Position numbers and translations under genes: made by a program. Shown here one piece after another: positions 15,568 through 29,474 of a DNA stretch of 64,000 bases. Position 1 is the stretch's first letter. Each line of letters starts with the position of its first letter. The DNA comes from Phycisphaerales bacterium (GTDB taxonomy: Bacteria > Planctomycetota > Phycisphaerae > Phycisphaerales > UBA1924). Location: contig JBQLZJ010000009.1 in NCBI GenBank assembly GCA_052168215.1, forward strand, positions 16,049 to 80,048, given 5' to 3'. The notes below the pieces were generated by a model. The model saw nothing but the letters and a program-made list of their open reading frames with translations. It had not been told where the DNA came from and ran no database searches.

Positions 15568-16830
15568 ATGGCCCGCCGATCCAAGACGAATTCGAAGAAG
15601 TCTGCCCCGAGCCGCCGAGCCCCGAAGCCCTCGGGTGCTGCATCGTCTCGCCCGAAGCAGGCCCCCCCATCGACAGGGTCACCCGAATCGGGGACGGAGG
15701 CGGCGGGTGATCCGCGGCAGCGCGCTCGGCTGGATCGGCTGCGCGCGAAGATCGATGAGGTGGACTCGGAGCTGGTCCGGCTGCTCAACGAGCGGGCCAA
15801 AGCGGTCAAGCAGGTCGGCACGCTGAAGCGGGCGAGCGGGATCCCGATCTACGCACCGCACCGGGAGAGCGAGGTCCTAGCCAAGGCGATCAGCCGGAAC
15901 CGCGGCCCGCTGCCGGACCGGACGGTGGAAGGGATCTACCGGGAGCTGATGTCGGGGAGCTTCGCGATCGAGCGGCCGCTGCGGATCGGGTACCTGGGGC
16001 CGCGCGGGTCATTCAGCCATCTGGCGTCGGTGAAACACTTCGGATCGAGCGTGGACTTCGAGGACCTGCGGACGATCGACGGTGTGTTCACCGAGATCCG
16101 GCGGGGGCATGTCGACTACGGGCTGGTGCCGATCGAGAACTCGATCGGCGGGGGGATCGTGGAGACGCTCGATGCGTTCGCGGAGCATGCGGGGCACCTA
16201 CGGGTGTACGCCGAGGCGCAGATCGAGATCCATCACGCGCTGCTGGCCAACTGCGAGCCGTCGAACATCCGTCGGATCCACTCGAAGCCGGAGATCTTCA
16301 GCCAATGCCGAACCTGGCTGGCGACGCAGTACCCGGAGGCGGAGCTGGTGCCGGCGGCGTCGAGCAGCCGGGCGGCGCAGACCGCGGCCGAGGAGGTCGA
16401 GACCGCCCTGGCGATCGGGACCACGCCGGTGGCCGCGGCGATCGGCAACTCGCTCGCTGGATCGATCTACGGCCTGAACACGCTGTTCGAGAACATCGAG
16501 GATCGGCCGGGCAATGTCACCCGGTTCCTCGTGTTGAGCCGTGAACGAGCCCGCCGGAGCGGCGACGACAAGACCTCGATCATGTTCAACACGCAGGACA
16601 AGCCCGGCGCGCTGGTGGCGGTGCTGCAGGACTTCCACGAGGCCGGGGTCAACCTGACCCACATCGACAAGCGGCCGAGCGGGCGGGAGAACTGGCAGTA
16701 CACCTTTTTCATCGACGCCGAGGGCCACCAAGACGATCGCATTCTGTCAGGTGTGCTGAAGCGAGCGGCTCATCACTGTCGCGAGCTGACTGTGCTCGGC
16801 AGCTACCCGCGTTCGCGACGGCTGCTCTGA
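15568..16830 (+). CDS. pheA: Bifunctional chorismate mutase / prephenate dehydratase (P-protein)
   Basis: Chorismate mutase: LDRLRAKIDEVDSELVRLLNERAKAV. Prephenate dehydratase: IGYLGPRGSFSHLA. ACT domain: TSIMFNTQDKPGALVAVLQDFHEAGVNLTHIDKRPS. ATG at codon 30 of the track ORF. Confidence 0.9.
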   Translation: MARRSKTNSKKSAPSRRAPKPSGAASSRPKQAPPSTGSPESGTEAAGDPRQRARLDRLRAKIDEVDSELVRLLNERAKAVKQVGTLKRASGIPIYAPHRESEVLAKAISRNRGPLPDRTVEGIYRELMSGSFAIERPLRIGYLGPRGSFSHLASVKHFGSSVDFEDLRTIDGVFTEIRRGHVDYGLVPIENSIGGGIVETLDAFAEHAGHLRVYAEAQIEIHHALLANCEPSNIRRIHSKPEIFSQCRTWLATQYPEAELVPAASSSRAAQTAAEEVETALAIGTTPVAAAIGNSLAGSIYGLNTLFENIEDRPGNVTRFLVLSRERARRSGDDKTSIMFNTQDKPGALVAVLQDFHEAGVNLTHIDKRPSGRENWQYTFFIDAEGHQDDRILSGVLKRAAHHCRELTVLGSYPRSRRLL

Positions 16831-17334
16831 CGGGGTCGGCCGCTGTCCTCGGGACGACGGCCGATGGACGAAGGGCCACCGTGTCCGAACTGAAGTCGCA
16901 GAATCCCGCTGCCCGGACCGCTGGAATATGGTCCGAGGGGGTTTCTGCGTGCTGAAGGGCGGATCCGCTGCTGGCGGCGCGAGCGCAAGGCATGGATAAT
17001 GCCGGAGCGTTCCCGGGCCGGGGAGGTCGGGGGGCGCGTGGGCTGGCGCCGGTGCGTCGGCCCGGGGGGCGGGCGGGCAAGGAGCCCGCAAACGGTCCGC
17101 GTCGGCTTGAGAGTCGGCCTTTGGTCCGGTAGCCTCCTCGACACACGCGGGAGAGCGGCTGCGGAACGGATGCGCCCGCTCGAACCCGAAGGCAGGTCCC
17201 GAACCGGCGTCGCACGCTCGGCGGCGGGGAGTGGGGGCTCTCGCTTGAGAGTCCGGGACCAGACATTGCGTGCGACGGGCCGCCACGGATGTGCGCTCGC
17301 CGCGACGCGAACACCGCGGGACAGGAAACCAGAT

Positions 17335-20300
17335 ATGAGCCGTTCGTCTGACGCGCGTCGTCGCTATGTCCGCTCCGCTGATTCCATCGTCCGTCGGGCG
17401 AAGCAGAGCGGTCTGACCGCGGATGGTCTGACCTCCGCCGCGGGGCACGCGGGGGGCATCGAGCGTGCCCGCGTGGAGCAGCTCGAGCCGCGCAAGCTGC
17501 TGTTCAGCGTGACCGTTGACGACAGCTTCATCGATCCGGTGACGGGGCTTGGGCTGGCCGAGGGGTTCTTCGGGTACTTCATCCCGCTGCTGCAGACCTC
17601 CGAGGATGTGACCATCGAGCCCGACGAGCTCGTGACGGAGGACTTCAACGACGAGGATCTGGGCGCCGTCTTCTCGGGCGATGTGTTCGATCAGAGCGAT
17701 GTGCTCTTCCTTCGCGGCGGTGCGGTGACCAGCCGGATCGTGCAGCCCGTGCCGGATGTCGACGAGCAGCGGCTCGATCTGCGGATCACGAACCCGGGCT
17801 CGTTCTTCTCGTTCGCGACGCTGTCGGACTCCGAGAACGCGAACGGGCCGCGGAATGTCAACACCGCCGTCACCTTCAGCGTCGGAAGCGGCGGCAACGC
17901 GTTCCGGCTGCTCAACGGCCAGATCGAGGTCGAGCTGCTGTTCGAGGGCCAGGTGGTCGACACCTTCGACCAGGCGGACCTGACCGCGATCGGCCAGAAT
18001 GTCGGCGCCGAGACGAACTACACACTGTTCAGCCGGAACCAGGGCGTGTTCGGCGGTGTGTTCGATGAGGTGCGGTTCGTCCAGCGCGCGCCCACGGGCG
18101 GCAACCCGGAGCAGGCCGGCGACTTCTTCATCGACGACCTGAACTTCCTCCAGCCGGCGGGGAACTTCGCCGATGTGATCGGCCCCCGCGCCTTCGGCGT
18201 GTCGTTCAGCATCCTGGCGCCCGTCGGCGCCACGGTCCAGTTCCTCGACATCTACGGCCGGGACATGATCCAGACCATCCGCGTCGGCGGGTCGGCGGGC
18301 AACACGAATGTCGTGCGGGGCGACTTCGACGATGACGGCGTGCCCGACTTCAACGACGGCATCGGCCGGATCATCATGACCGGCTTCGACAGCACCAGTT
18401 CCTTCAAGCTGACGGGCGGCACGATCGAGTTCTTCGACGGCCCGGCGCCGGACGGAGCCGACTTTACCGAGGGGGGCGACGCGGCGTTCTTCTACGCGGA
18501 AACGCTCAGCCTGTACGACGACTTCGAGGAAGCGGGCTTCGGCTTCTTCATCTCGGGCGAGGACAGCACGGTCTCCGGCCTGCCGGATGACGGCCCCGGC
18601 ACGGTCATCATCGGCTCGCAGTTCGTCCGGCCGCTGAACGACTACGACCCGCTCGAGGCTGCTTCGCTCGACTTCGATTTCAGCCGGGACGACCAGGGCA
18701 TCTTCCTGAACGACGGCTCGTCCATCGGGCAGGTTACGACGAACGCGATCCTGTTCGGCTCGAGCAACTTCAACGGCTCGGTCGGTCAGTTCTCGTCGGG
18801 CTACTTCCTCGGGTCGCTGGCGGTCGCGGGCGACCTCGGCGGGTTCTACGCGGGCACGGACGCCGGCGCGTACCAGATCGACCCCGACGCCGTTGACGAT
18901 GACGATGTGATCGTCGACTTCCCGCTGACGAACTCGCAGGTGGTCGTCGGGCGGACGCTGGGCGACTTCGCGGTCGCCGGCCGGAGCTTCGTCGACATCA
19001 CCGTCGAGGGCGACCTGAGCTCGCTGGATGTCGAGCCGGACGATGTGCTGGTGTACGACGAGCGCGAGCTCGTCTTCGGCATCAGCCTGGACGCGGACCC
19101 CGCGGCGGTGATCACCGCGCAGGCCGAGTATCTCAACGGCGGGTTCCAGGTGCTGCCGCAGATCTTCACGAGCTCCGCGATTGGCACGATTCCCGGGACG
19201 ATCGTCAACGCGACGGCGTTCGGCGATACCTACTACCGCAACGACTCGATCCTCAACGCCGAGTTCGTCGGCGGCGCAGCGTCGGCGGTGGTGGTCCGCG
19301 GCTCGCTGGGCGGGCAGGACCCGATCAACACGGGCCAGGACGCGAGCGATGTGTACGCCTTCGCCGTCGACGGTTCGACCGAGGTGGTCATCGAGACGCT
19401 CTCCTTCACGGGCGTCGGGTTCCGCGTGGTCGATGTCGACGGGCGAACCGTCGCGGCGACCTCGGGCGACTTCGACACGGCGTTCGGGCAGGTCGTCCGG
19501 TTCAACCCGGACACGCCCGGCGTGTACTACCTCGTGCTCCACAACCCGACCGGTCAGGATGTCGACGAAGAGATCGACGCGGTCTACAGCGTTCTGATCT
19601 CCGGCATGGCGCCGACGACGCTCGGGTCGTACCGCACGGGCCTCGGCGGCGGCAGCACGCAGGACACCCGCGACAACGCGCCGGACGGGTTCCAGGAGCG
19701 CGCCTCGATCACCGTGCTCTCCGGCAGCGTCGGCTCGGTGCGCATCGGTACCGGCTATGTCTCCGGCGCCGGCACGGAGGAGAGCACCGTTGACTTCATC
19801 AATGTCTTCGGCGAGGAAGACGACGAGCAGCTCAACGCGAACGGCCTGAGCCTGTCGACGCCGGGCAGCCTGTACAGCTTCGTCAGCGGCGGCGACATCA
19901 ACTCCGCAGACGGCCGCGCCAGCGCCCCCGTGTCGCTCTCGATCGGACGCGATCTCGGCACCTTCCACACCGGGCGTTCGCCCATCGCCGGCATCGGCGA
20001 CGCGGGCCTGGTTCGGCTGGATGTCGGCGGCCGGATCGGCCTGATCGACATCAACGGCAGCATCGCCGCCGACACCGAGAACGCCGACGGATTCCTCAAC
20101 CGATTCCCCGGCGATACCTTCATCGTTCGGACCGGGCTCGACCCGGATCTCGACGGCGACATCGGGCTCATCATCGTGGGCCAGCAGGTCACCGGCGACG
20201 CACTGACGATCGACACCAGCGCCTCACCCGGCGCGGTGGTCGGCGGGCTCCTGATCTCGCAGCGGACCGAGGACTTCGGCCGGGGTGGAGACTTCGGCGA

Positions 20301-23300
20301 CGACCTGGGCATCTTCGACTCGATCAACGGTGTGAACCTGGTGCTCGGGCAGGACAGCGACATCCGCTTTGTGGACACACCGCGCATCGACCTGCTCGAA
20401 GGGCAGAACAGCGCGCTGCCGCTCATCATTGGTCAGCCCTTGGAGCTGGTCGATGACGCCGGCGGGCGGGTGGAGATCGTGGTCTCGCAGGACGGCATCA
20501 TCGGCCAGGTCGTCGCGGGCCGCGTGATCGTCGTCCCGGTCGACGACGGCGAGGGCGTGGCGATCGCGCGGATCGAGATCGACCTGACCGGCACCGGCAC
20601 GATCGCCGGCGGTCGGACGCTGACGATCCGCGGCCTGGCGGGGCAGGATGTCAACGATGTCATCTCGATCGGACGCATCCTCGTGACCGCGTCGGACGCG
20701 AACTCGCGCATCCAGATCACCGGCAACGCGCAGATCGATGTCTGGCGCATCGATGCGCCGGAGGGCCTCGACCGAATCGAGAACTTCACGCCGCGCGGCG
20801 ACATCGTCGCGATCGACACCCTGAGCCTCGACACGCTGCGCATCACCGGCGGCGATCTCGGCCGGACGCAGGTGCCGGAGTACGGCCCGCGGCTGATCGG
20901 CCCGGTGCTCGGTCTGACGCCGGGCCTCAACGGCACGGTCGGCGGAGCGCTCGGGTTCACGCAGGGCGAGATCACCGATCAGGACTGGAACGGCCAGATC
21001 TACCGGCCGACCACGGACACGAGCTTCGCCGCCGGCAACGCGTACCTCGACGACATCGGCTCGCCGTTCGACGATGCGCTCAACGGCCTGGCGGTGCGGA
21101 CGGGCAGCGTGACCCTCGTGGAGTCGAACCGCTCGATCGGCGATGTGATCCTGCAGGACGCCGCCGGCGACCTGACCACGGTCCGCGCCAACGCGGATCG
21201 CATCACGCCGAACGGTGAGTTCGAGGGGATCATCGGCTCGATCTTCGCGGGCCAGGACATCGATCTGGTGGACATCGGCGACGGCATCATCAGGACCGAG
21301 ACGGGCACGAACACGCCCTTCGCCGAGACGGGCATCTACGCCGAGCGGTTCATCCGCCGTGTGCAGTCGACGATCGACGGCGCGTTCATCAGCTCCAACA
21401 TCATCGCGGCGTTCCGCGACGCCGGCACCGGCGTTGTCAGCCCGTTCGGCACCGAGGGCATCGACTCGATCAGCCTCACCGGGGGTGACATCCGCGACGC
21501 GTTCATCGGCTCGACCGATCTCGACCAGTTCTACCGGAGCCGGGACTACGGCAACGAGGGCCGGTTCCGCGGCGATCTCCGGCAGATCACGCTCACCAAC
21601 GGCGACCTGTTCGGCTCGGTCGTGACCTTCCGCGATGTCGAAACGATCACCATCACCAACGGCTTCTTCGACGCGACCGACCTGAGCGTGCTCGGCGAGC
21701 TCAGCGGTTCGATCACCGCCGACGGCTTCCGCAACACCACGCTGGAGGGCGACACGCTCGAGTTCCGTCTGAGCCGCATCGCCGTCGGCGAGGATCTGGA
21801 GCAGCTGACCGCGCGGCAGGGCGGGACGATCTCGGATACGACGATCTCCGTGCTCGGCGACATCGAGAACGGGCTGACCGCCGGCAACCTCGTTCGGACG
21901 AACCTGCAGGTCGCCAACACGATCCGCTCGCTCATCGTGTCCGACAGCATCCTGGCGAGCTCCATCACCGCGGGTCAGCTCGTCGCGGTGACGGTCACGG
22001 ACACCGTGCAGCTCAGCTCCTTCTCGATCGCGGGCCCGATCGTCAACTTCCGTGTGCAGAACGAGATCGTGCGGTCGCAGATCTCGGTGACCGGCCCCGA
22101 CGGCCGGATCGATCGCCTGTCGGCCGCCAACGATCTGGACGCGGACATCTCGTCCTCCGGCCGGATCGGCACGATCGAGTCGCAGAACGGCTCGATCGCG
22201 GGCTCGATCGTCACGACGACCGATCGCGGCGACATCAACATGATCAGCGCCGCGGTCGACCTGGCCGCCAGCACCGACATCGGCGGCGACCTGAACATGC
22301 TCGAGGTCGGGCGGAACATCGGCAGCGCCGACGCGCCGAGCGTCGTGCTCGTCCGCGGCGATGTGACCGAGCTCGATGTCTCGGGTGGGCGGATCATCTC
22401 CGACCTGCGAGTCGGCGGCCGGGTGACGCAGGGCATCACCGTCGGCGGCGTGACGAACCTGCCCACCAACGCCAAGGCCGCCGACGGCGACATCACCGTC
22501 TTCGGCCGCATCGCCGAGGTCTCGATCACCGGCGACTACGACGGCCTGATCACCAGCGAGTCCGGCGGCATCGGCACCGTCACGATCCTCAACGGCTCGC
22601 TCCTCGCCGGCGGCGGCGTGATCGCCAACGACGGTGGCATCGGCACGGTCTCCATCATCGCCGGCCATCTCCTCGGCAACATCTACGCCGACCAGACCAT
22701 CAACCTGATCTCCGTGCAGTCCTCTGCGGACGGGTCGTTCGGCGACATCGGCATCAACAACCAGCTCTCCTCGGGCACCGCGTCCTCGGACAGCGCCCGC
22801 AACCAGCTGCCGCCGGGCGTCGTCGCGACCGGGGGCAACGACGGCCCCGTCATCGCGTCCGGCCGGGCGATCAACAGCATCATCGTCTCGGGTGGCGACA
22901 TCATCGAGGCGCTGATCTACGCCCGCACCTCGATCGGCACGATCGCCGTCAACGGCTCGATCCGGAACAACCAGAGCTCGTCGACGCAGGATCAGACCAC
23001 GGTCATCGCCGCGGGCGATCTGGTTCGAGAAGTGCTGGTGACAGGCGCGGCCACCGATGTGCTCTTCCTGGCCGGTGTGACGAGCTTCGGCGACGACCCG
23101 ATCTTCACCATCGCCGACCCGCTCTACAACGACCGCGCCGGCGGCACGGGGGCTGACGCGGACACGATCAAGTCCGGGCGGATCCAGACCGTGACCATCG
23201 GCGGGAACGCGACGGATGTCGCCTTCTCCGCCGGCATGACCGCCGGCAACGACGGCGAGTACAACACGGGCGACGCCGGCGAGGGCCATGTCGTCGGCCT

Positions 23301-26300
23301 GAGCATCGTCGATCAGATCACGATCCTGGGCACGCAGACCAATGTCACGGTCAACGCCGACCGGGCCGCCGCGTTCGTCAACGGCACGAATGTCCGCGCC
23401 AGCAACTTCGGCGGGCGTGCCCCGAACGCCGACGGCCTGCTCGCGCCGCTCACCGACGCGTTCGTTGGCGGCTCGATCGACCTGAGCCAGCTCGGCACGC
23501 TGGTGCCGCGCAACGGCTCGCAGGTGTTCACCTGGAACGGGACATCGTTCCGCGTGAACTGGAACGCGCCCGCGCCGACCTCCGCCGCCGAGGCCGCGGG
23601 ACAGGGCGTCGTCTGGGACGCCAGCACGGGCACGCTGATCCTCGCCAACACCCGTATCACGCACGATGTCACGATCACCGTGCTCGACAACGACGCCAAC
23701 GCGGGCACCGCGCTGCCCTCGCTGATCGACTTCAACATCCGGTCCAACGACGAGGCGTCCATCGGCACGCTGCGCATCACGGGCGAGAACGGCACGGCGA
23801 CGGTCGCCGGCAACTCGAGCATCGTGATCGACAACTACGCCAGCACGATCGCGCTGGGCAACTTCAACAGCTCGGGCCGGATCGTCGTCGGGGCCGACAT
23901 CGGCACGCTGACCGCGACGCGCATCGCCGGCGCATCCGTCCAGGCGAACTTCGTCAGGACCACCAACATCACGGGCAGCGTCGTGACGCTCAGCGGCCAG
24001 GCGCCGCGCTTCGATTACAGCGGCGCGGGCTCGTTCACCGTGACGGGCAACGCCACGGCCGAGTTCAATGTCGATCGCTCGATCAACACGCTGCGGGTGA
24101 ACGGGTCGGCGAACGGCCTGCTCTTCCGCGCCGGCGGCTCGCTGACCGCCTTCGAGGCCGGCAGCGTCTCCCGCTCGCGCCTGAGCGTGGCGAACACGAT
24201 CGGCTCGATCGATGTCGTCGGCGATGTCTTCGATACCTCGTTCATCGCGGGCGGCGACCTCGGCACCGACCTGCGCGACGGCGACGGCTCAAGGTCCTCC
24301 GACATCGACCGCGTCACCAGCGGCATCATCAACGAGGTCGACATCGGCGGCAGCTTCGCCGAGTCCGACATCGTCGCGGGCTTCCTCCGCGGGGCCGACG
24401 GGTTCTTCGGCAGCGCCGACGATGCCGCGGCCGCGGGCATCTCCTCGATCGGCACGGTGACGATCGACGGCACGAGAACCGGCTCGAATGTCAACTCCGA
24501 GTCGTACGCGATCCTCGCCGCCGGCACGATCAACGAGGCCACCATCGGCGGTCAGGACGCGGAGTCGCGCGGCAACCTTGTCGTCGGCCCGGTCACCTCG
24601 GTGCCGCTGCCGATCCGCGTTGATGGGTTCCGAGTCCTGCAGGACGCGCGGAGCTACACCGCCTTCTTTACTTTCAACCAGAACATCGACGAGTCCTCCT
24701 TCCTCGATGCGCTCCGCATCCGGGAGGCACGCAACGAGGACGATGCCCAGCAGCCCTGGGACCCGGCCGATCCGCTGAGCCTGCAGGTGCCCACGCCGGG
24801 CGTGCCGGGTTCGGGCGACTACTCGATCACCTACGACGAGGCAACCTTCACCTTCGCCGTCACCATCGATCGCGCGATCACCGATCGCGATCTGGTCGAC
24901 AACGGCGACGGGACCTTCAGCCTGCCCAGCGCGCCGGCGCCGGGCGTGTACCGGTTTGAGCTCTCGTCCGCGGTGCTCCGCGCCCTCAACGCGGGCGCAC
25001 GGCTTGACGGGGACGGGGACGGGTTCTCGATCGTCGGCGACGACTTCTCGGCTGACGCGGTCGTCGGCGACGCCGGCGATGTCGCCGGTCCGCGCCCCAT
25101 CGAGCGCGTGACGGTCATGGGTGACAACGGCGACGCGACCATCAACTTCTACGGTGCGGTCAATCTCGACCTGCTGCTCGATTCCAACCGCACGCCGGAC
25201 GGCCTGCCGGAGACCAACACCGTCGTCCGGATCAACGGCGCCCTGGGCGATCACCCGGACCGCGATCTCAACCTGTTCGGCTTCGGCGGCGACAAGGACC
25301 TGTACGCGGTCACGCTGCAGGCGGGCCAGATCCTCCGCCTCGGCGAGGTGACCGGTCCCGCGAACCAGCTGATCCGCTCCGTGTACTTCCAGCCCGTCGA
25401 CGGGAGCGAGCCGCTGCTCGTCAGCACGGCGTCGGGTGGTTTCGAGTCCACCAACGAGACGGCCCAGGCCGTCGTCCTGCCCAGCTCGACGCCCGAGCTC
25501 ACGGACATCGGCACCGACACCGCGCTGCTCATCAAGCAGACCGGGACCTACTACATCGTCGCCGAGTCCGCCTCGGTCAGCGAAGCGCCGTTCACCCAGG
25601 GCGCGGTGCCGAACCAGGACCCGCAGCCCAACCAGATCGGCAACTACGCCTTCGACATCGAGGTCTTCGACGACGGCAACTCGGGCTTCAACGCCGGCAC
25701 CGACGCGGGCAACGGCACGAACATCGTCTACGCCCCGCCGCCCGCCGCCTTTACGCAGCCCGGCCAGATCATCACCATCGGCGACTTCTCGTTCACGCTC
25801 GAGAACGGCGTGGTGCGGGGTCAGAACAGCGACGGCTCGATCGTGTCGACCCGGAACGGCACACGGCTCGAGAGCGTCATCACCTCCTCGATCGGTTCGC
25901 CCGGGTTGGCCGGGGCGCCGGGCGAGATCCAGGCCGATGTCGACATCTTCCACCTCAACAACTTCCAGCCCGTGCAGGCCGGCTCGCTCGTCACGATCAC
26001 GGTCGGCCTGAGCGACACCGGCGCGGATCTCGGCTCGACGATCCGCGACGAGGCCGACGCCATCGTCACCGGGTTCCAGTCGCTGACGAACCAGTCACGG
26101 AATGTGCAGTTCGCGCTCTTCGAGACCACGAACTCCAGCGACGCCGAGAGCGCCGACCTGGTGTTCAGCCCGACCGACTTCCAGTCGCGGGCCGGCACGC
26201 CCGACACGATTCTCGCCAGCAACGGCGCGACGCGATACGGCTATGACAGCAACGGCGATTTCTTCATCTCGTTCGTTGTTCCTCCCTCGTTCGACGGCGG

Positions 26301-27087
26301 TAACGGCACCTTCGCGGTCTATCTCCAGGGCGCGTTCCGGGCCGACTACGAGCTGCGCGTTGTCACCCAGGGCACCGCGAGCTACACCCCCCGCACGCAG
26401 AATGTCCTCATCGAGGCCAACGGCGGGACCATCGACTGGCTCGGTATCCAGGACGAGGTATCGTTCGGCGGCTTCGACGCCGGCACGCTGGGCTTTGCGG
26501 GCCTGGTCAGCAATGTCAGCGTCGAGAGCTTCATCCTCGCCGAGGTCACGCAGCGGCTGAACGGCTTCTTCGACGCCATCGGGCTGGATGTGAACTTCTC
26601 CACCAACCCGGCCGAGTTCGAGTTCGAGCCCTTCTCAACGGTCTTCCTCACCAGCGACGCCAACCCGGTCGGCCTGCTGACGCTGTCGGACTACGGCGTC
26701 AGCGAGCGGTCCGACCCGTTCAACACCGATCTCGAGGACGAGGCCGTCGTCTTCGCCCCGGCGTACGCCACGCTCGGCTTCTCGCCCAGCCCGACGGACC
26801 TGGAGAACTTCATCGACTCCATCGCCGCGGGCATCGGCCGCCGCGTCGGCGAGCTCGTCGGCCTCCGGCTCACCGTGTCGAACCCGCTCGCTGATGTCGG
26901 CGGCAACATCGATATCCAGAGCGAGGAGTCGATCGCCTTCCCGAGGCTGGACCCGCAGTCCAGCTATGTCTTCTCGCCCGACAGCCGCGAGCTGGTCGGC
27001 TTCGACAACTTCATCGACGACACCGCCTTCTTCCTGGGCGACCAGCGGGCCGTCTCGCTGCTCGACACCATCCTGGCCGACGACTGA
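17335..27087 (+). CDS. Giant (3,250 aa) acidic LEPR-XLL-motif extracellular-type protein with PPC-like modules and a beta-helix-like repeat tract
   Basis: ATG at codon 113 of track ORF 16999..27087; the upstream part is R/G-rich non-coding-like. LEPRKLL lies at aa 50-56 (nt 17482-17502). Ca-binding-like loops: RGDFDDDGVPDFNDG and ARLDGDGDGF. PPC-like modules: DASDVYAFAVDG...PGVYYLVLHN and GDKDLYAVTLQAG...TGTYYIVAES. Degenerate approximately 20-residue G/I/V/D/T-rich turns run over about nt 21900-24600. Confidence 0.85.
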   Translation: MSRSSDARRRYVRSADSIVRRAKQSGLTADGLTSAAGHAGGIERARVEQLEPRKLLFSVTVDDSFIDPVTGLGLAEGFFGYFIPLLQTSEDVTIEPDELVTEDFNDEDLGAVFSGDVFDQSDVLFLRGGAVTSRIVQPVPDVDEQRLDLRITNPGSFFSFATLSDSENANGPRNVNTAVTFSVGSGGNAFRLLNGQIEVELLFEGQVVDTFDQADLTAIGQNVGAETNYTLFSRNQGVFGGVFDEVRFVQRAPTGGNPEQAGDFFIDDLNFLQPAGNFADVIGPRAFGVSFSILAPVGATVQFLDIYGRDMIQTIRVGGSAGNTNVVRGDFDDDGVPDFNDGIGRIIMTGFDSTSSFKLTGGTIEFFDGPAPDGADFTEGGDAAFFYAETLSLYDDFEEAGFGFFISGEDSTVSGLPDDGPGTVIIGSQFVRPLNDYDPLEAASLDFDFSRDDQGIFLNDGSSIGQVTTNAILFGSSNFNGSVGQFSSGYFLGSLAVAGDLGGFYAGTDAGAYQIDPDAVDDDDVIVDFPLTNSQVVVGRTLGDFAVAGRSFVDITVEGDLSSLDVEPDDVLVYDERELVFGISLDADPAAVITAQAEYLNGGFQVLPQIFTSSAIGTIPGTIVNATAFGDTYYRNDSILNAEFVGGAASAVVVRGSLGGQDPINTGQDASDVYAFAVDGSTEVVIETLSFTGVGFRVVDVDGRTVAATSGDFDTAFGQVVRFNPDTPGVYYLVLHNPTGQDVDEEIDAVYSVLISGMAPTTLGSYRTGLGGGSTQDTRDNAPDGFQERASITVLSGSVGSVRIGTGYVSGAGTEESTVDFINVFGEEDDEQLNANGLSLSTPGSLYSFVSGGDINSADGRASAPVSLSIGRDLGTFHTGRSPIAGIGDAGLVRLDVGGRIGLIDINGSIAADTENADGFLNRFPGDTFIVRTGLDPDLDGDIGLIIVGQQVTGDALTIDTSASPGAVVGGLLISQRTEDFGRGGDFGDDLGIFDSINGVNLVLGQDSDIRFVDTPRIDLLEGQNSALPLIIGQPLELVDDAGGRVEIVVSQDGIIGQVVAGRVIVVPVDDGEGVAIARIEIDLTGTGTIAGGRTLTIRGLAGQDVNDVISIGRILVTASDANSRIQITGNAQIDVWRIDAPEGLDRIENFTPRGDIVAIDTLSLDTLRITGGDLGRTQVPEYGPRLIGPVLGLTPGLNGTVGGALGFTQGEITDQDWNGQIYRPTTDTSFAAGNAYLDDIGSPFDDALNGLAVRTGSVTLVESNRSIGDVILQDAAGDLTTVRANADRITPNGEFEGIIGSIFAGQDIDLVDIGDGIIRTETGTNTPFAETGIYAERFIRRVQSTIDGAFISSNIIAAFRDAGTGVVSPFGTEGIDSISLTGGDIRDAFIGSTDLDQFYRSRDYGNEGRFRGDLRQITLTNGDLFGSVVTFRDVETITITNGFFDATDLSVLGELSGSITADGFRNTTLEGDTLEFRLSRIAVGEDLEQLTARQGGTISDTTISVLGDIENGLTAGNLVRTNLQVANTIRSLIVSDSILASSITAGQLVAVTVTDTVQLSSFSIAGPIVNFRVQNEIVRSQISVTGPDGRIDRLSAANDLDADISSSGRIGTIESQNGSIAGSIVTTTDRGDINMISAAVDLAASTDIGGDLNMLEVGRNIGSADAPSVVLVRGDVTELDVSGGRIISDLRVGGRVTQGITVGGVTNLPTNAKAADGDITVFGRIAEVSITGDYDGLITSESGGIGTVTILNGSLLAGGGVIANDGGIGTVSIIAGHLLGNIYADQTINLISVQSSADGSFGDIGINNQLSSGTASSDSARNQLPPGVVATGGNDGPVIASGRAINSIIVSGGDIIEALIYARTSIGTIAVNGSIRNNQSSSTQDQTTVIAAGDLVREVLVTGAATDVLFLAGVTSFGDDPIFTIADPLYNDRAGGTGADADTIKSGRIQTVTIGGNATDVAFSAGMTAGNDGEYNTGDAGEGHVVGLSIVDQITILGTQTNVTVNADRAAAFVNGTNVRASNFGGRAPNADGLLAPLTDAFVGGSIDLSQLGTLVPRNGSQVFTWNGTSFRVNWNAPAPTSAAEAAGQGVVWDASTGTLILANTRITHDVTITVLDNDANAGTALPSLIDFNIRSNDEASIGTLRITGENGTATVAGNSSIVIDNYASTIALGNFNSSGRIVVGADIGTLTATRIAGASVQANFVRTTNITGSVVTLSGQAPRFDYSGAGSFTVTGNATAEFNVDRSINTLRVNGSANGLLFRAGGSLTAFEAGSVSRSRLSVANTIGSIDVVGDVFDTSFIAGGDLGTDLRDGDGSRSSDIDRVTSGIINEVDIGGSFAESDIVAGFLRGADGFFGSADDAAAAGISSIGTVTIDGTRTGSNVNSESYAILAAGTINEATIGGQDAESRGNLVVGPVTSVPLPIRVDGFRVLQDARSYTAFFTFNQNIDESSFLDALRIREARNEDDAQQPWDPADPLSLQVPTPGVPGSGDYSITYDEATFTFAVTIDRAITDRDLVDNGDGTFSLPSAPAPGVYRFELSSAVLRALNAGARLDGDGDGFSIVGDDFSADAVVGDAGDVAGPRPIERVTVMGDNGDATINFYGAVNLDLLLDSNRTPDGLPETNTVVRINGALGDHPDRDLNLFGFGGDKDLYAVTLQAGQILRLGEVTGPANQLIRSVYFQPVDGSEPLLVSTASGGFESTNETAQAVVLPSSTPELTDIGTDTALLIKQTGTYYIVAESASVSEAPFTQGAVPNQDPQPNQIGNYAFDIEVFDDGNSGFNAGTDAGNGTNIVYAPPPAAFTQPGQIITIGDFSFTLENGVVRGQNSDGSIVSTRNGTRLESVITSSIGSPGLAGAPGEIQADVDIFHLNNFQPVQAGSLVTITVGLSDTGADLGSTIRDEADAIVTGFQSLTNQSRNVQFALFETTNSSDAESADLVFSPTDFQSRAGTPDTILASNGATRYGYDSNGDFFISFVVPPSFDGGNGTFAVYLQGAFRADYELRVVTQGTASYTPRTQNVLIEANGGTIDWLGIQDEVSFGGFDAGTLGFAGLVSNVSVESFILAEVTQRLNGFFDAIGLDVNFSTNPAEFEFEPFSTVFLTSDANPVGLLTLSDYGVSERSDPFNTDLEDEAVVFAPAYATLGFSPSPTDLENFIDSIAAGIGRRVGELVGLRLTVSNPLADVGGNIDIQSEESIAFPRLDPQSSYVFSPDSRELVGFDNFIDDTAFFLGDQRAVSLLDTILADD

Positions 27088-27308: not shown

Positions 27309-28808
27309 GTGCGCACGCAGAGCGATACAACCACTCCCCGTCCTCTCCATCACACCCGGCCCAGGCCGATCACCAAGGGACGGTTCACCGCCGCCCTGAT
27401 CGCGATCACGCTCCTCGCGGCGGGGCTGCGCCTGTACGAGCTCGGATCGCCCGGCTTGTGGAACGACGAGCTCTACACCGTCCGCTCGGCGCTCGATCTG
27501 GCGAACACGCGCCCCGACAAGACGCTCGGCTATGTCCCGACATGGCTCATGCTCCAGGCGATCGGCGCGGGGGATCTGAACCCGCACGACTCCTCGAACT
27601 GGCAGGAATCGGGTCTGACACCGTTCATGATCCGGCTGCCCACGGCGATCGTCGGCATCCTCACGATCCCGGCGGTCATGCTGCTCGGCCGCGCCGCGAT
27701 CTCGCCGCGGTTCGGCATCGCGCTCGCGTTCATGTTCGCGGTCTGCCCGTGGCACATCTACTGGTCGCAGGGCGCTCGGTTCTATACCCCGCAGATGCTC
27801 TTTATGTCCGTGAGCATGCTGGCGTACTGGGCCGGGATCCGGCACCGCTCGACCCGGTGGCAGATCGTTGCGGCCGCATCCTTCGGTCTCGGCGTGCTGT
27901 CCCAACCGAACGCGGTCATCCTGGCCGTGGTGCCCGTCGTCGATCTCGCGTGGACGCTCCTTCGCCGCAAGCCGCTCCGGATCGGCCTCGCGGGCATGGC
28001 GGCGTGGGCGGTCGCGGGCATCGTCACGGCAAGCATCCTCGCCTTCGGGGTCTATTCCGGCTGGGACGACTACCAGCAGTTCCTCGGCGCACAGAAGCCA
28101 TCGGGCATCGCGGGGGCGTTCTCGCTACCGCTTGGCGTGGCGTTCATGCTCACACCCGTGGTCGCGCTCGCGGTGGTGCTCGGGTGGTTCGAGCTGTACC
28201 GGCATGCGCCACGCGCCGCCGTCTTCTTCGGCGTCGCGGCGGCGGCGCCCGTGGTCGGCTACAGCCTCTGGGCGCTCGGGAACAATGTCGGCCTGCGCTA
28301 CCTTGTCGTGTCGATCCTGGGGCTGCTGGCGCTCGGTGCCTATCTTCTGATGCGCATGACCTTCGTGCTCGCCCGCCGACGCGGCGCGCTCTACGCCCCC
28401 ATTCCCGCGATCGTCGTCCTTGCGTCCGTCAGCTCCCTGCTCGCCAGCTACTTCACGACGGGCTACGGCTTCCGCCCCCGCTGGGCGGAGGTGTACGAGG
28501 AGCTCGATCGGCTCAAGCAGCCGGGCGACCGCATCGTCGATCGTCACCCGATCGTTGCGTCGTACTACCTCCGCCGCCCGGTGGACCTGTTCCCGCCGAA
28601 CGCCCAGGCCTTCGACGAGACCAACCAGCCCGTCATCTTCGCCATGGAGACCGATCTGCCCGTCGGCTGGATGCTCCGCCGAGGCGAGCTGCTTGCCACC
28701 CGGGACATCCGGGCACTCCGGCCGCTCGCCGAGGTGCATGTCCTCCGGCTCGCCCCGGCCACGCCCGCGCGGTCGGTCGCGGACCAGACCGTCGCTCCCG
28801 AGGGCTGA
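27309..28808 (+). CDS. GT-C fold glycosyltransferase, ArnT/PMT-like (family 39/83 type), polytopic membrane protein
   Basis: N-terminus FTAALIAITLLAAGLRLYELGSPGLWNDELYTVRSAL, which is the LRLY-LG...LW-DE first-loop acidic motif typical of ArnT/PMT-like enzymes. Many TM helices follow, then a soluble C-terminal part. Confidence 0.7.
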   Translation: MRTQSDTTTPRPLHHTRPRPITKGRFTAALIAITLLAAGLRLYELGSPGLWNDELYTVRSALDLANTRPDKTLGYVPTWLMLQAIGAGDLNPHDSSNWQESGLTPFMIRLPTAIVGILTIPAVMLLGRAAISPRFGIALAFMFAVCPWHIYWSQGARFYTPQMLFMSVSMLAYWAGIRHRSTRWQIVAAASFGLGVLSQPNAVILAVVPVVDLAWTLLRRKPLRIGLAGMAAWAVAGIVTASILAFGVYSGWDDYQQFLGAQKPSGIAGAFSLPLGVAFMLTPVVALAVVLGWFELYRHAPRAAVFFGVAAAAPVVGYSLWALGNNVGLRYLVVSILGLLALGAYLLMRMTFVLARRRGALYAPIPAIVVLASVSSLLASYFTTGYGFRPRWAEVYEELDRLKQPGDRIVDRHPIVASYYLRRPVDLFPPNAQAFDETNQPVIFAMETDLPVGWMLRRGELLATRDIRALRPLAEVHVLRLAPATPARSVADQTVAPEG

Positions 28809-29066
28809 CGCGGGCCCGCTGCGATCCCGTCTCGGCAGACTTCTCGGGCGTGCTCACCGCGGTCAGCCTTCCCGGAAGAGGGTGCGACCCGCGTCGCCCT
28901 GACGCCCCGTCGCACGCCCGGATCGCCGTCCGGCTCAGGAGCGGCTCGGGCTAACCGCGGGGGGACCCTGCCCAATCCTCCCAAACGACACGGCCGGCAC
29001 AACCAACGGGCGACGCTCCGAGAGAACCCTGTCCGTCGCGCCGATTGGTGGCATGGTGCCCGTGCC

Positions 29067-29474
29067 ATGAACAGATCCGGTCGAAACATCCTGTCGCTGA
29101 ACACGCTGATGCGGGCCGACGATTCGTCCGAGCGGAGCGACGCCCGCCGTCACGGCCGTGTCCGCATCGAGCTGATGAGCTGCTCCCTGGGCACCGTGCT
29201 GGACCTGTCCCGCTCGGGGATGCGCGTGCTGGCCCGTCGTCGGCGCGAGCTGGTTGCCAACATGAAGCACCAGATCGTCCTGGAGGCGTTCGATCAGCGC
29301 GTCGAGCTGCCCTGCCGCATCGCCTGGATCGAGAAACGCGGCCTGTTCAAGTCGGAGATCGGTATCGAGTTTGGCGAACTGACCGATGACCAGGCGGCGG
29401 TGCTGTGCAGCATCGCGCGGACCGCGGCCTCGAACGCGCAGCTGGGCTCGTTCTCCACACGCCGCGCGTCCTGA
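29067..29474 (+). CDS. PilZ-domain c-di-GMP-binding protein
   Basis: RRHGRVR (RxxxR) followed by LDLSRSGMRV (D-x-S-x-x-G), within a protein of single-domain size. Confidence 0.75.
   Translation: MNRSGRNILSLNTLMRADDSSERSDARRHGRVRIELMSCSLGTVLDLSRSGMRVLARRRRELVANMKHQIVLEAFDQRVELPCRIAWIEKRGLFKSEIGIEFGELTDDQAAVLCSIARTAASNAQLGSFSTRRAS

Follow-up and report, generated by a model that had tools for sequence, protein, structure and literature searches.

How might a protein of 3,250 residues with no conventional signal peptide be addressed out of a planctomycete cell? The question is raised by a gene in a 64,000-nucleotide stretch of DNA (the window; positions 16,049 to 80,048 of the forward strand of contig JBQLZJ010000009.1, assembly GCA_052168215.1, Phycisphaerales bacterium), whose product, the giant protein, carries near its N-terminus a basic segment followed by the heptapeptide LEPRKLL. 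It is highly probable that residues 1–57 of this protein form a functional leader of a non-Sec, non-Tat kind. Taken as a whole, the further statement that these residues are a dedicated Sec- and Tat-independent leader addressing the giant protein to a type-I-like export cassette devoid of an ATP-binding cassette (ABC) transporter has, in our judgement, even chances of being correct.

The N-terminal leader of the giant protein

The open reading frame (ORF) of the giant protein comprises 3,250 codons on the + strand, from the ATG at 17335–17337 to the stop codon at 27085–27087, and residues 1–58 of its product read MSRSSDARRRYVRSADSIVRRAKQSGLTADGLTSAAGHAGGIERARVEQLEPRKLLFS. The features of the coding region are the following (window coordinates; pI, isoelectric point).

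17335–27087, + strand: whole giant gene; 3,250 residues, 338 kDa, pI 4.05, net charge −271, 0 Cys, 7 Lys.
17323–17326, + strand: Shine-Dalgarno-like AGGA, 8 nucleotides before the ATG; immediately 5' of the aligned ATG, GGGACAGGAA is invariant in six genus members.
17335–17505, + strand: leader, residues 1–57; basic (net charge +5, pI 11.5), without hydrophobic core, predicted unstructured.
17356–17373, + strand: basic box RRRYVR, residues 8–13; the form taken here by the family box RP[YF][VA]R.
17428–17445, + strand: L-x3-A-G box (L32...A36-G37), 12 residues before LEPR in the giant protein.
17473–17505, + strand: core motif V-E-Q-L-E-P-R-K-L-L-F, residues 47–57, with LEPRKLL at nucleotides 17482–17502.
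17506–18414, + strand: first folded region, a β-sandwich or jelly-roll predicted by AlphaFold2, residues 58 to ~360.

The N-terminus, the RRRYVR box and the LEPRKLL motif agree exactly, on re-reading, with an earlier reading of the same DNA (the first-pass annotation). ATG 17335 is well supported as the start codon, since several orthologues have an in-frame stop just 3–9 codons 5' of the equivalent ATG, M1 is invariant in the alignments of full-length homologues, and the AGGA box is conserved. The frame is also open upstream of this ATG, from 16999, and the extension is non-coding; its GC content at the three codon positions is flat (0.72/0.72/0.77 versus 0.64/0.40/0.93 inside the giant gene).

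The giant protein as a whole has no match in Pfam, NCBIfam or PDB sequences, and no transmembrane-like segment was found by analysis of the composition and sequence of all 3,250 residues. Hyper-acidic, with a pI of 4.05, free of Cys and of transmembrane segments, it looks by its sequence like a cargo for transport in the unfolded state. Lys is scarce (7 residues versus 162 Arg, that is 0.2% versus 5.0%), and two of the Lys residues, K23 and K54, belong to the leader. The last ~30 residues (window 26990–27084; ...DDTAFFLGDQRAVSLLDTILADD) are conserved in a 60-member alignment with the consensus DTxFFLGxQNxxSLLDxxL.

A large protein database contains 72 homologues of the giant protein (3,018–3,344 residues, with one fragment of 1,900 residues), with a mean column identity of 37–40% across the family. 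The named sources are all metagenome-assembled genomes of Planctomycetota or Phycisphaerales, and one relative with 35% identity is titled Phycisphaerales bacterium. Every one of the 72 is annotated as "hypothetical protein", so that surveys by PGAP name undercount such leaders. The three-box leader is common to 70 of them; the other two have starts called too far downstream.

In these 70 homologues the basic box RP[YF][VA]R occurs in its strict form in 32, in a relaxed form in 50 and with twin Arg in 24. RRRYVR had been described as Tat-like; it is a variant of the family box in which the first Arg is not conserved, and the resemblance to Tat signals is therefore superficial. L32, A36 and G37 of the second box are each kept in at least 90% of homologues, and [AS]G stands 7–24 residues ahead of LExR in 64/70. 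Among the canonical leaders read, the A-G box was essentially confined to family f1. The core follows the family consensus [VL]-[ED]-x-L-E-x-R-[QK]-[LM]-L-F-[SAT]-[LV]-[TS]-[IV], with no variation at L50, E51 and R53, retention of L56 and F57 in at least 90%, and a variable third motif position (P in the giant protein). The conserved residues of the leader rank among the best-conserved positions of the whole family. The segment preceding the motif has a median charge of +7, compared with −167 for the remainder of the protein.

The first-pass annotation had asked whether the spacing to the start codon and the basic box are conserved; the spacing is bounded, with 28–62 residues from start to LExR (median 43) in 70/70, whereas the twin-Arg form of the box is not conserved. 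The motif is anchored N-terminally rather than placed at random in all 70, and so it is in canonical LEPR-XLL proteins, whether from 40 relatives or from a phylum sample (201 genomes, each at least 90% complete). In all six-frame ORFs of at least 100 residues in the giant protein's own genome, strict LEPR.LL occurs four times, and the two plausible matches both belong to ORFs of more than 2,000 residues, where they lie at most 62 residues from the start. Given this rare N-terminal placement and the invariance of L50, E51 and R53, chance is excluded, on the sequence evidence, as the source of LEPRKLL.

Residues 1–400 were modelled with AlphaFold2 from a 25-sequence alignment (mean pLDDT 77). 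Residues 1–55 have a pLDDT below 55 with two weak helices and are predicted to be unstructured, while a confident β-sandwich (pLDDT 86–97) extends from residue 58 to about residue 360. Foldseek matches this region weakly to CBM22, CBM86, CBM8 and CBM32 (TM-score 0.45–0.6 on the target). The boundary in the model places LEPRKLL where a flexible and basic tail gives way to the first folded domain.

Within the first 60 residues of the giant protein the best 10-residue Kyte-Doolittle window scores 0.69, and no uncharged run exceeds 7 residues; those N-termini of the same genome that resemble signal peptides or transmembrane segments score at least 2.3. For the family leaders the best window has a median of 0.82 and a maximum of 1.49, with a median longest uncharged run of 7.5. 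Charged residues are scattered over residues 14–48 of the giant protein. A Sec signal was rejected by hydropathy for want of a hydrophobic core, and a Tat signal because the twin Arg of S/T-R-R-x-F-L-K is restricted to 24/70 homologues and an h-region of about 12–20 uncharged residues is absent. TatC is present in the genome, and the rejection rests on hydropathy and conservation, not on a missing machinery. The absence of a Sec or Tat h-region noted earlier thus holds by hydropathy in the giant protein and its family. The weak outlier is homologue P0059, whose basic box is followed by 20 uncharged residues rich in Ala, Gly and Ser; no other family member approaches a Tat-like h-region.

The motif class itself was proposed in 2004 as a planctomycete export signal (Studholme et al. 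2004, as cited in PMC8567305). Tuwongella immobilis has 52 motif proteins, 20 of which were detected in its proteome; found mainly in the detergent-only fraction, they are treated as surface proteins (PMC8567305). In a 2026 preprint, "N-terminal 24 aa LEPRxLL" domains are mentioned for the giant proteins of an epibiont among the green sulfur bacteria. The first-pass annotation had stated that no translocon or peptidase is demonstrated for the motif, and the literature searched likewise gave no such paper.

LEPRKLL had further been taken as a literal instance of LEPR-XLL. This stands for the heptapeptide, which lies N-terminally in a large protein (residues 50–56 of 3,250), as NF012209 (LEPR-8K) describes, and in a protein of Planctomycetota, as PF07595 (Planc_extracel) describes. 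It does not stand for the curated thresholds, which the giant protein misses, nor for the name, its homologues being called "hypothetical protein". The leader taken as 65 residues scores 9.5 bits with NF012209 (cut-off 17); neither the whole giant protein nor its first 100 residues match this model at E ≤1, and a search of the genome gave no match at the site. With PF07595 the score is 13.7–17.1 bits (gathering threshold 25.5). Of 53 family leaders, none reaches the cut-off of either model; one matches NF012209 at all, and 16 match PF07595 at E ≤10. A profile-profile comparison of the family leader with 30 canonical LEPR-XLL leaders gave a probability of 76% (E = 2e-5), confined to a 16-column core. 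Since both curated cut-offs are missed and the cores nevertheless match by profile, the leader is, as judged from sequence, a divergent variant of the LEPR-XLL motif and not a member by the curated definitions.

Both groups of leaders are N-terminal on large surface-type planctomycete proteins and share the L-E-x-R-x-L-L core with a preceding E-x, a basic N-region and no hydrophobic core. The leaders of the giant family differ in being longer (median 43 residues to the motif versus ~10–45 elsewhere), in having the additional boxes RP[YF][VA]R and L-x3-A-G, and in the residues after LL, which are F-[SAT]-L-T-[IV] rather than the canonical S-[AG]-D.

The ABC-less cassette and its co-occurrence with the leader

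A candidate export machine is encoded on the contig of the giant gene, just outside the window (C9:4-7114), and ends ~26 kb upstream of the giant start. It consists of genes for an HlyD periplasmic adaptor (cut by the contig end), a GAF-HlyD adaptor, a PqqD+M50+HlyD fusion, which joins a PqqD-like putative leader-binding domain to an M50 intramembrane metalloprotease and a third HlyD adaptor, and a truncated SecA. The truncated SecA, 650–670 residues long, is the second SecA of the genome; it has only the DEAD, PP_bind and P-loop domains, with Walker A and DEAD intact. In the fusion protein the HExxH and NxxPxxxxDG motifs are intact, and its N-terminal half aligns to the full length of NF041824, the daptide leader peptidase (E = 2e-50), with a score of 171.9 bits where the equivalog cut-off is 300. 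Genes of TolC type are located elsewhere in the genome. In this 79%-complete genome no ABC exporter of HlyB or PrtD type was found, TIGR01846 and TIGR01842 giving only nucleotide-binding-domain matches, and the LapG-type C93 protease (PF06035) gave no match.

The same gene set is known as the conserved "secondary SecA_DEAD" locus (Kamneva, Poudel & Ward 2015, PLoS One, PMC4452313), whose authors name no cargo and call the role of the cassette "completely unknown". The present genome shares with it GAF-HlyD, M50-HlyD, the truncated SecA_DEAD and the extra HlyD, and OEP/TolC is adjacent in some relatives. What differs is the link of a cargo with LExRxLL leaders, which comes from the co-occurrence in the present analysis. 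Methylobacterium extorquens AM1 also carries the cassette.

Phylogenetic profiling, which the first-pass annotation had suggested for genes accompanying the motif, was applied to the RRE-M50-HlyD fusion and the cassette genes around it. In the phylum sample NF012209 matches 32 genomes and the fusion marker 61, with 29 genomes having both. Three genomes with motif and without fusion proved on reading to be two antisense-type false matches and one case without the motif. All genuine motif genomes thus carry the fusion (29/29), compared with 32/172 (19%) of the others (raw odds ratio 41), and the motif-bearing genomes cover 20 families. Among the 40 relatives, the seven without a fusion gene also have neither an NF012209 match above cut-off nor a giant orthologue. 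If the type-1 cassette is defined by at least 52% identity to the C9 cassette, a giant orthologue occurs within family f1 in 15/17 genomes with a SecA-bearing type-1 cassette and in 0/7 genomes without one; the two exceptions, which have the cassette and no giant protein, are fragmented assemblies. Because this kind of leader occurs only in genomes that carry the cassette, the cassette is the best candidate for the export machine.

The NF012209 matches at or near the cut-off in L063 (G025), L131 (G233) and L140 (G191) look antisense or wrong-frame (...LERLEQRGLLAADVG...). False matches of this model lie in high-GC genes far from the starts, so that motif-only surveys of high-GC genomes need a check of N-terminal position.

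Physical linkage was observed as well. The motif gene and the fusion gene are at most 12 kb apart in at least 10 genomes, and a motif protein adjoins a cassette on contig C4 of the present genome and in G028, G024, G141, G187, G210 and others. In G028 the cassette, an OEP/TolC gene, an HlyD gene and a 4,839-residue LEPR-XLL ORF are contiguous. Of the three cassette types, two have the truncated SecA immediately next to the fusion gene.

The genus has as many as three paralogous cassettes of the RRE-M50-HlyD kind, types 1 and 3 with a neighbouring truncated SecA and type 2 without one (G002:C1, G001, G003, G006, G007 and others); the present genome, as far as it is complete, shows types 1 and 2 only. 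Its second cassette (GAF-HlyD and M50-HlyD, without SecA) is placed 1.3 kb downstream of a cadherin/laminin-G/RTX protein (C4:321275-329770, L017:2275-10770). That protein has a classic short leader ...RKPRLDVESLEKRVLMSA, its 3' end runs into a masked stretch (N), and its pairing with the SecA-less cassette is repeated in G002. A third leader-bearing protein of 2,129 residues (C4:106809-113198, minus strand; L018:6809-13198) scores 28.5 bits with NF012209. Its leader contains an L-L-S-S-A-G box, its C-terminus matches ASRT (PF07100), and it has orthologues across the genus and adjoins no cassette. The genome thus has just three motif-bearing proteins and two candidate export cassettes, which bears out the earlier view of the giant protein as a good test case.

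Routes by which the leader may be read

What we infer for the cassette is binding of the leader, export of the giant protein and cleavage of the leader. The cytoplasmic PqqD/RRE-like domain, at about residues 35–100 of the fusion protein, would bind the leader, probably at the strand [VL]-E-x-L-E-x-R-x-L-L-F. The truncated SecA would push the chain at the expense of ATP; the motor and preprotein-binding domains are retained in it, and the scaffold/wing domain that couples SecA to SecY is predicted to be missing. The three HlyD-type adaptors and a TolC-type channel would then conduct the chain through the periplasm and the outer membrane. The M50 domain may cut off the leader, with the vicinity of the A-G box and the boundary of leader and first domain as possible places; such cleavage by M50 is itself a doubtful part of the scheme.

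A broader proposal, which can be put forward only tentatively, is that LExRxLL leaders together with the ABC-less cassette (truncated SecA, RRE-M50-HlyD, GAF-HlyD, HlyD and TolC) constitute a distinct and undescribed secretion pathway for giant surface proteins of double-membrane bacteria, with leader "dialects" that would have arisen in this Phycisphaerales lineage. As part of the same tentative proposal, the three-box leader and the short classic leader of cadherin type would each be read by one of the two or three paralogous cassettes, with A-G as a possible M50 site.

Several components have counterparts in known systems. In the double-glycine systems with a peptidase-containing ABC transporter (PCAT; colicin V, CvaAB-TolC) there is likewise a short leader without h-region and a conserved dipeptide of small residues in the leader (A-G in the giant protein), and, as is proposed for the cassette, an exporter-fused peptidase domain recognises the leader and the cargo passes through an adaptor and TolC. 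The cassette differs from them in having an adaptor-fused RRE-M50 instead of C39 on an ABC pump, a truncated SecA as motor, and a cargo of 338 kDa rather than a peptide. A36-G37 is at least 90% conserved, and its placement relative to hydrophobic residues departs from the PCAT pattern. A full-length HlyB-like ABC exporter was not found in the genome, C39 itself not having been searched for specifically.

With the daptide leader peptidase (NF041824) the fusion protein shares the PqqD-like and M50 core, which spans the whole model with intact catalytic motifs; it differs by its score below the equivalog cut-off, by the HlyD adaptor and by the giant protein as putative substrate. No genes for RiPPs, peptides made on the ribosome and modified after translation, were noticed in the stretches read beside the cassette, where no dedicated search was made. 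The SecA2/SecY2 system of Gram-positive serine-rich-repeat adhesins also uses a second SecA for very large adhesins and an extended N-terminal signal with a basic-aromatic box (KxYKxGKxW versus RP[YF][VA]R in the giant family). Those signals, however, retain an h-region and use SecY2, whereas the system considered here has neither an h-region nor a second SecY; its SecA is truncated, and its partners are of the HlyD/TolC type of a double-membrane cell.

Several points weigh against export of the giant protein by the cassette. The literature searched holds no experiment on export, binding or cleavage by the cassette, and the way in which the chain would pass the inner membrane with neither an ABC nor a SecY channel is a difficulty already noted by Kamneva et al. 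(PMC4452313). The genomes are kin, so that a Fisher p-value overstates the association; on the RpoB tree the co-distribution of the giant protein and the type-1 cassette is reduced to ~3 independent events (one gain and two joint losses), all in the same direction, and a sign test on 2–3 independent contrasts is not significant. Cassettes without an NF012209 match occur in 32 genomes of the phylum sample, which could contain divergent leaders like that of the giant protein, or other cargo. In G000, G002 and G007, the three genomes of the genus that have both on one contig, the giant gene is 26–32 kb from the cassette with housekeeping genes between, and other genera have them on separate contigs; their linkage in the genus may be plain synteny. 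Finally, the conserved C-terminus of the giant protein could, by its sequence, be a second signal or an anchoring element.

Some of these observations would suit a genuine leader that is read by another route, the cassette only processing, regulating or quality-controlling the giant protein or serving other cargo. For such a route speak the distance of the giant gene from the cassette in its own lineage, the 32 of 61 cassette-positive phylum genomes without an NF012209 match, and the lack of an obvious inner-membrane channel component in the cassette. It is nonetheless rather unlikely, given that the dependency of the leader on the cassette runs one way and has no exceptions (29/29 genomes with a genuine motif and 15/15 family members with the giant protein), that adjacency of motif and cassette is frequent elsewhere, and that the cassette's combination of leader-binding domain, protease, motor and three adaptors fits export.

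It is also possible, and distinctly improbable, that the N-terminus is a retention or anchoring tail as in LapA, a basic and flexible end that would remain in the envelope or block the outer channel, and that a conserved C-terminus directs export in a type-I-like manner. The giant protein does resemble the cargo of LapA/LapBCE in being a giant acidic Cys-poor adhesin-like molecule with HlyD/TolC-type partners and a functional N-terminus. Its composition is typical of type I substrates, the C-terminal ...FFLGxQ..SLLDxxL is conserved in the family, and the A-G dipeptide of the leader recalls the di-alanine LapG site. Against this, the search of the 79%-complete genome revealed neither a LapG-type C93 protease nor an ABC exporter of a type I secretion system, Pfam shows no RTX repeats in the giant protein, the basic N-terminus is predicted to be disordered and not a folded plug, and the PqqD/RRE-M50 module has the architecture of a leader peptidase. 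A LapA-like module with a LapG site at A-A-G was rejected for lack of the protease, the exporter and the repeats.

That the giant protein stays in the cell, its N-terminus serving for instance in translation regulation or assembly, would agree with the absence of any classical signal, anchor or sorting tail and is very improbable: zero Cys, extreme acidity and CBM-like and Ca-binding-type loops are extracellular traits, and the motif proteins of Tuwongella immobilis are regarded as belonging to the surface (PMC8567305). That the leader is an atypical signal peptide of Tat or Sec type is hardly credible, for although RRRYVR resembles R-R-x-F-L-K, TatC is encoded and P0059 has its 20-residue uncharged stretch, only 24/70 homologues have the twin Arg, the longest uncharged run of the giant protein is 7, no homologue exceeds a 10-residue hydropathy of 1.49, and charged residues are dispersed over residues 14–48.

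Upstream region, gene neighbours and significance

The region upstream of the giant gene contains one further feature.

17107–17135, + strand: promoter-like element, TTGAGA at 17107–17112, a 17-nucleotide spacer and TAGCCT at 17130–17135; ~200 nucleotides before the start codon.

This TTGAGA-17 nt-TAGCCT pair may be regarded as a putative promoter, with transcription predicted to begin ~7 nucleotides downstream of TAGCCT. A promoter consensus scan did not call it at 17107–17135. GCTTGAGAGTCG and GTAGCCTCC do not vary among the upstream regions of the giant gene in six genomes of the genus. The 11-mer GCTTGAGAGTC has only two copies in the 2.38-Mb genome (0.75 expected by chance), and both are upstream of the giant gene; the first (17105–17115) is within the genus-invariant GCTTGAGAGTCG...GTAGCCTCC block, and the second (17243–17253) is specific to the present genome. 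Neither a regulatory RNA nor a terminator was found in the 504-nucleotide region upstream of the giant gene.

On the 3' side the giant gene is followed by a gene for a PMT_2 (GT-C) glycosyltransferase and then by a small ORF at 28809–29474 (together window 27309–29474). A functional link of these two with the giant protein was rejected, as tblastn gave no homologue of either in the retrieved regions beside the giant gene in five relatives, one of the same genus. Upstream, nuoN and/or pheA were found in four of the five relatives checked, and what is conserved in the setting of the giant gene is that it follows the nuo operon and pheA.

Separate publications describe the motif (2004) and the cassette (2015), and the literature searched gave no paper that joins them. 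What is new here is a 70-member leader family missed by both curated models, with its three-box architecture and sharp structural boundary, and a compact genome in which cargo and cassettes are countable; the finding makes a good test case and does not open a new category. With about 3 Mb, three leader-bearing proteins and two or three cassettes, this genome offers a small clean system, in which 70 orthologous leaders define the constrained residues and the predicted border of leader and first domain, at residue 57/58, is sharp. It also follows that current annotation models overlook whole families of such leaders. Since 2004 LExRxLL has stood as an orphan "signal", and since 2015 the secondary-SecA cassette as an orphan "machine"; the present locus lets the link between them be tested. 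If the link is true, it would mean a new route of protein secretion and a transferable tag for the export of very large proteins free of cysteine.

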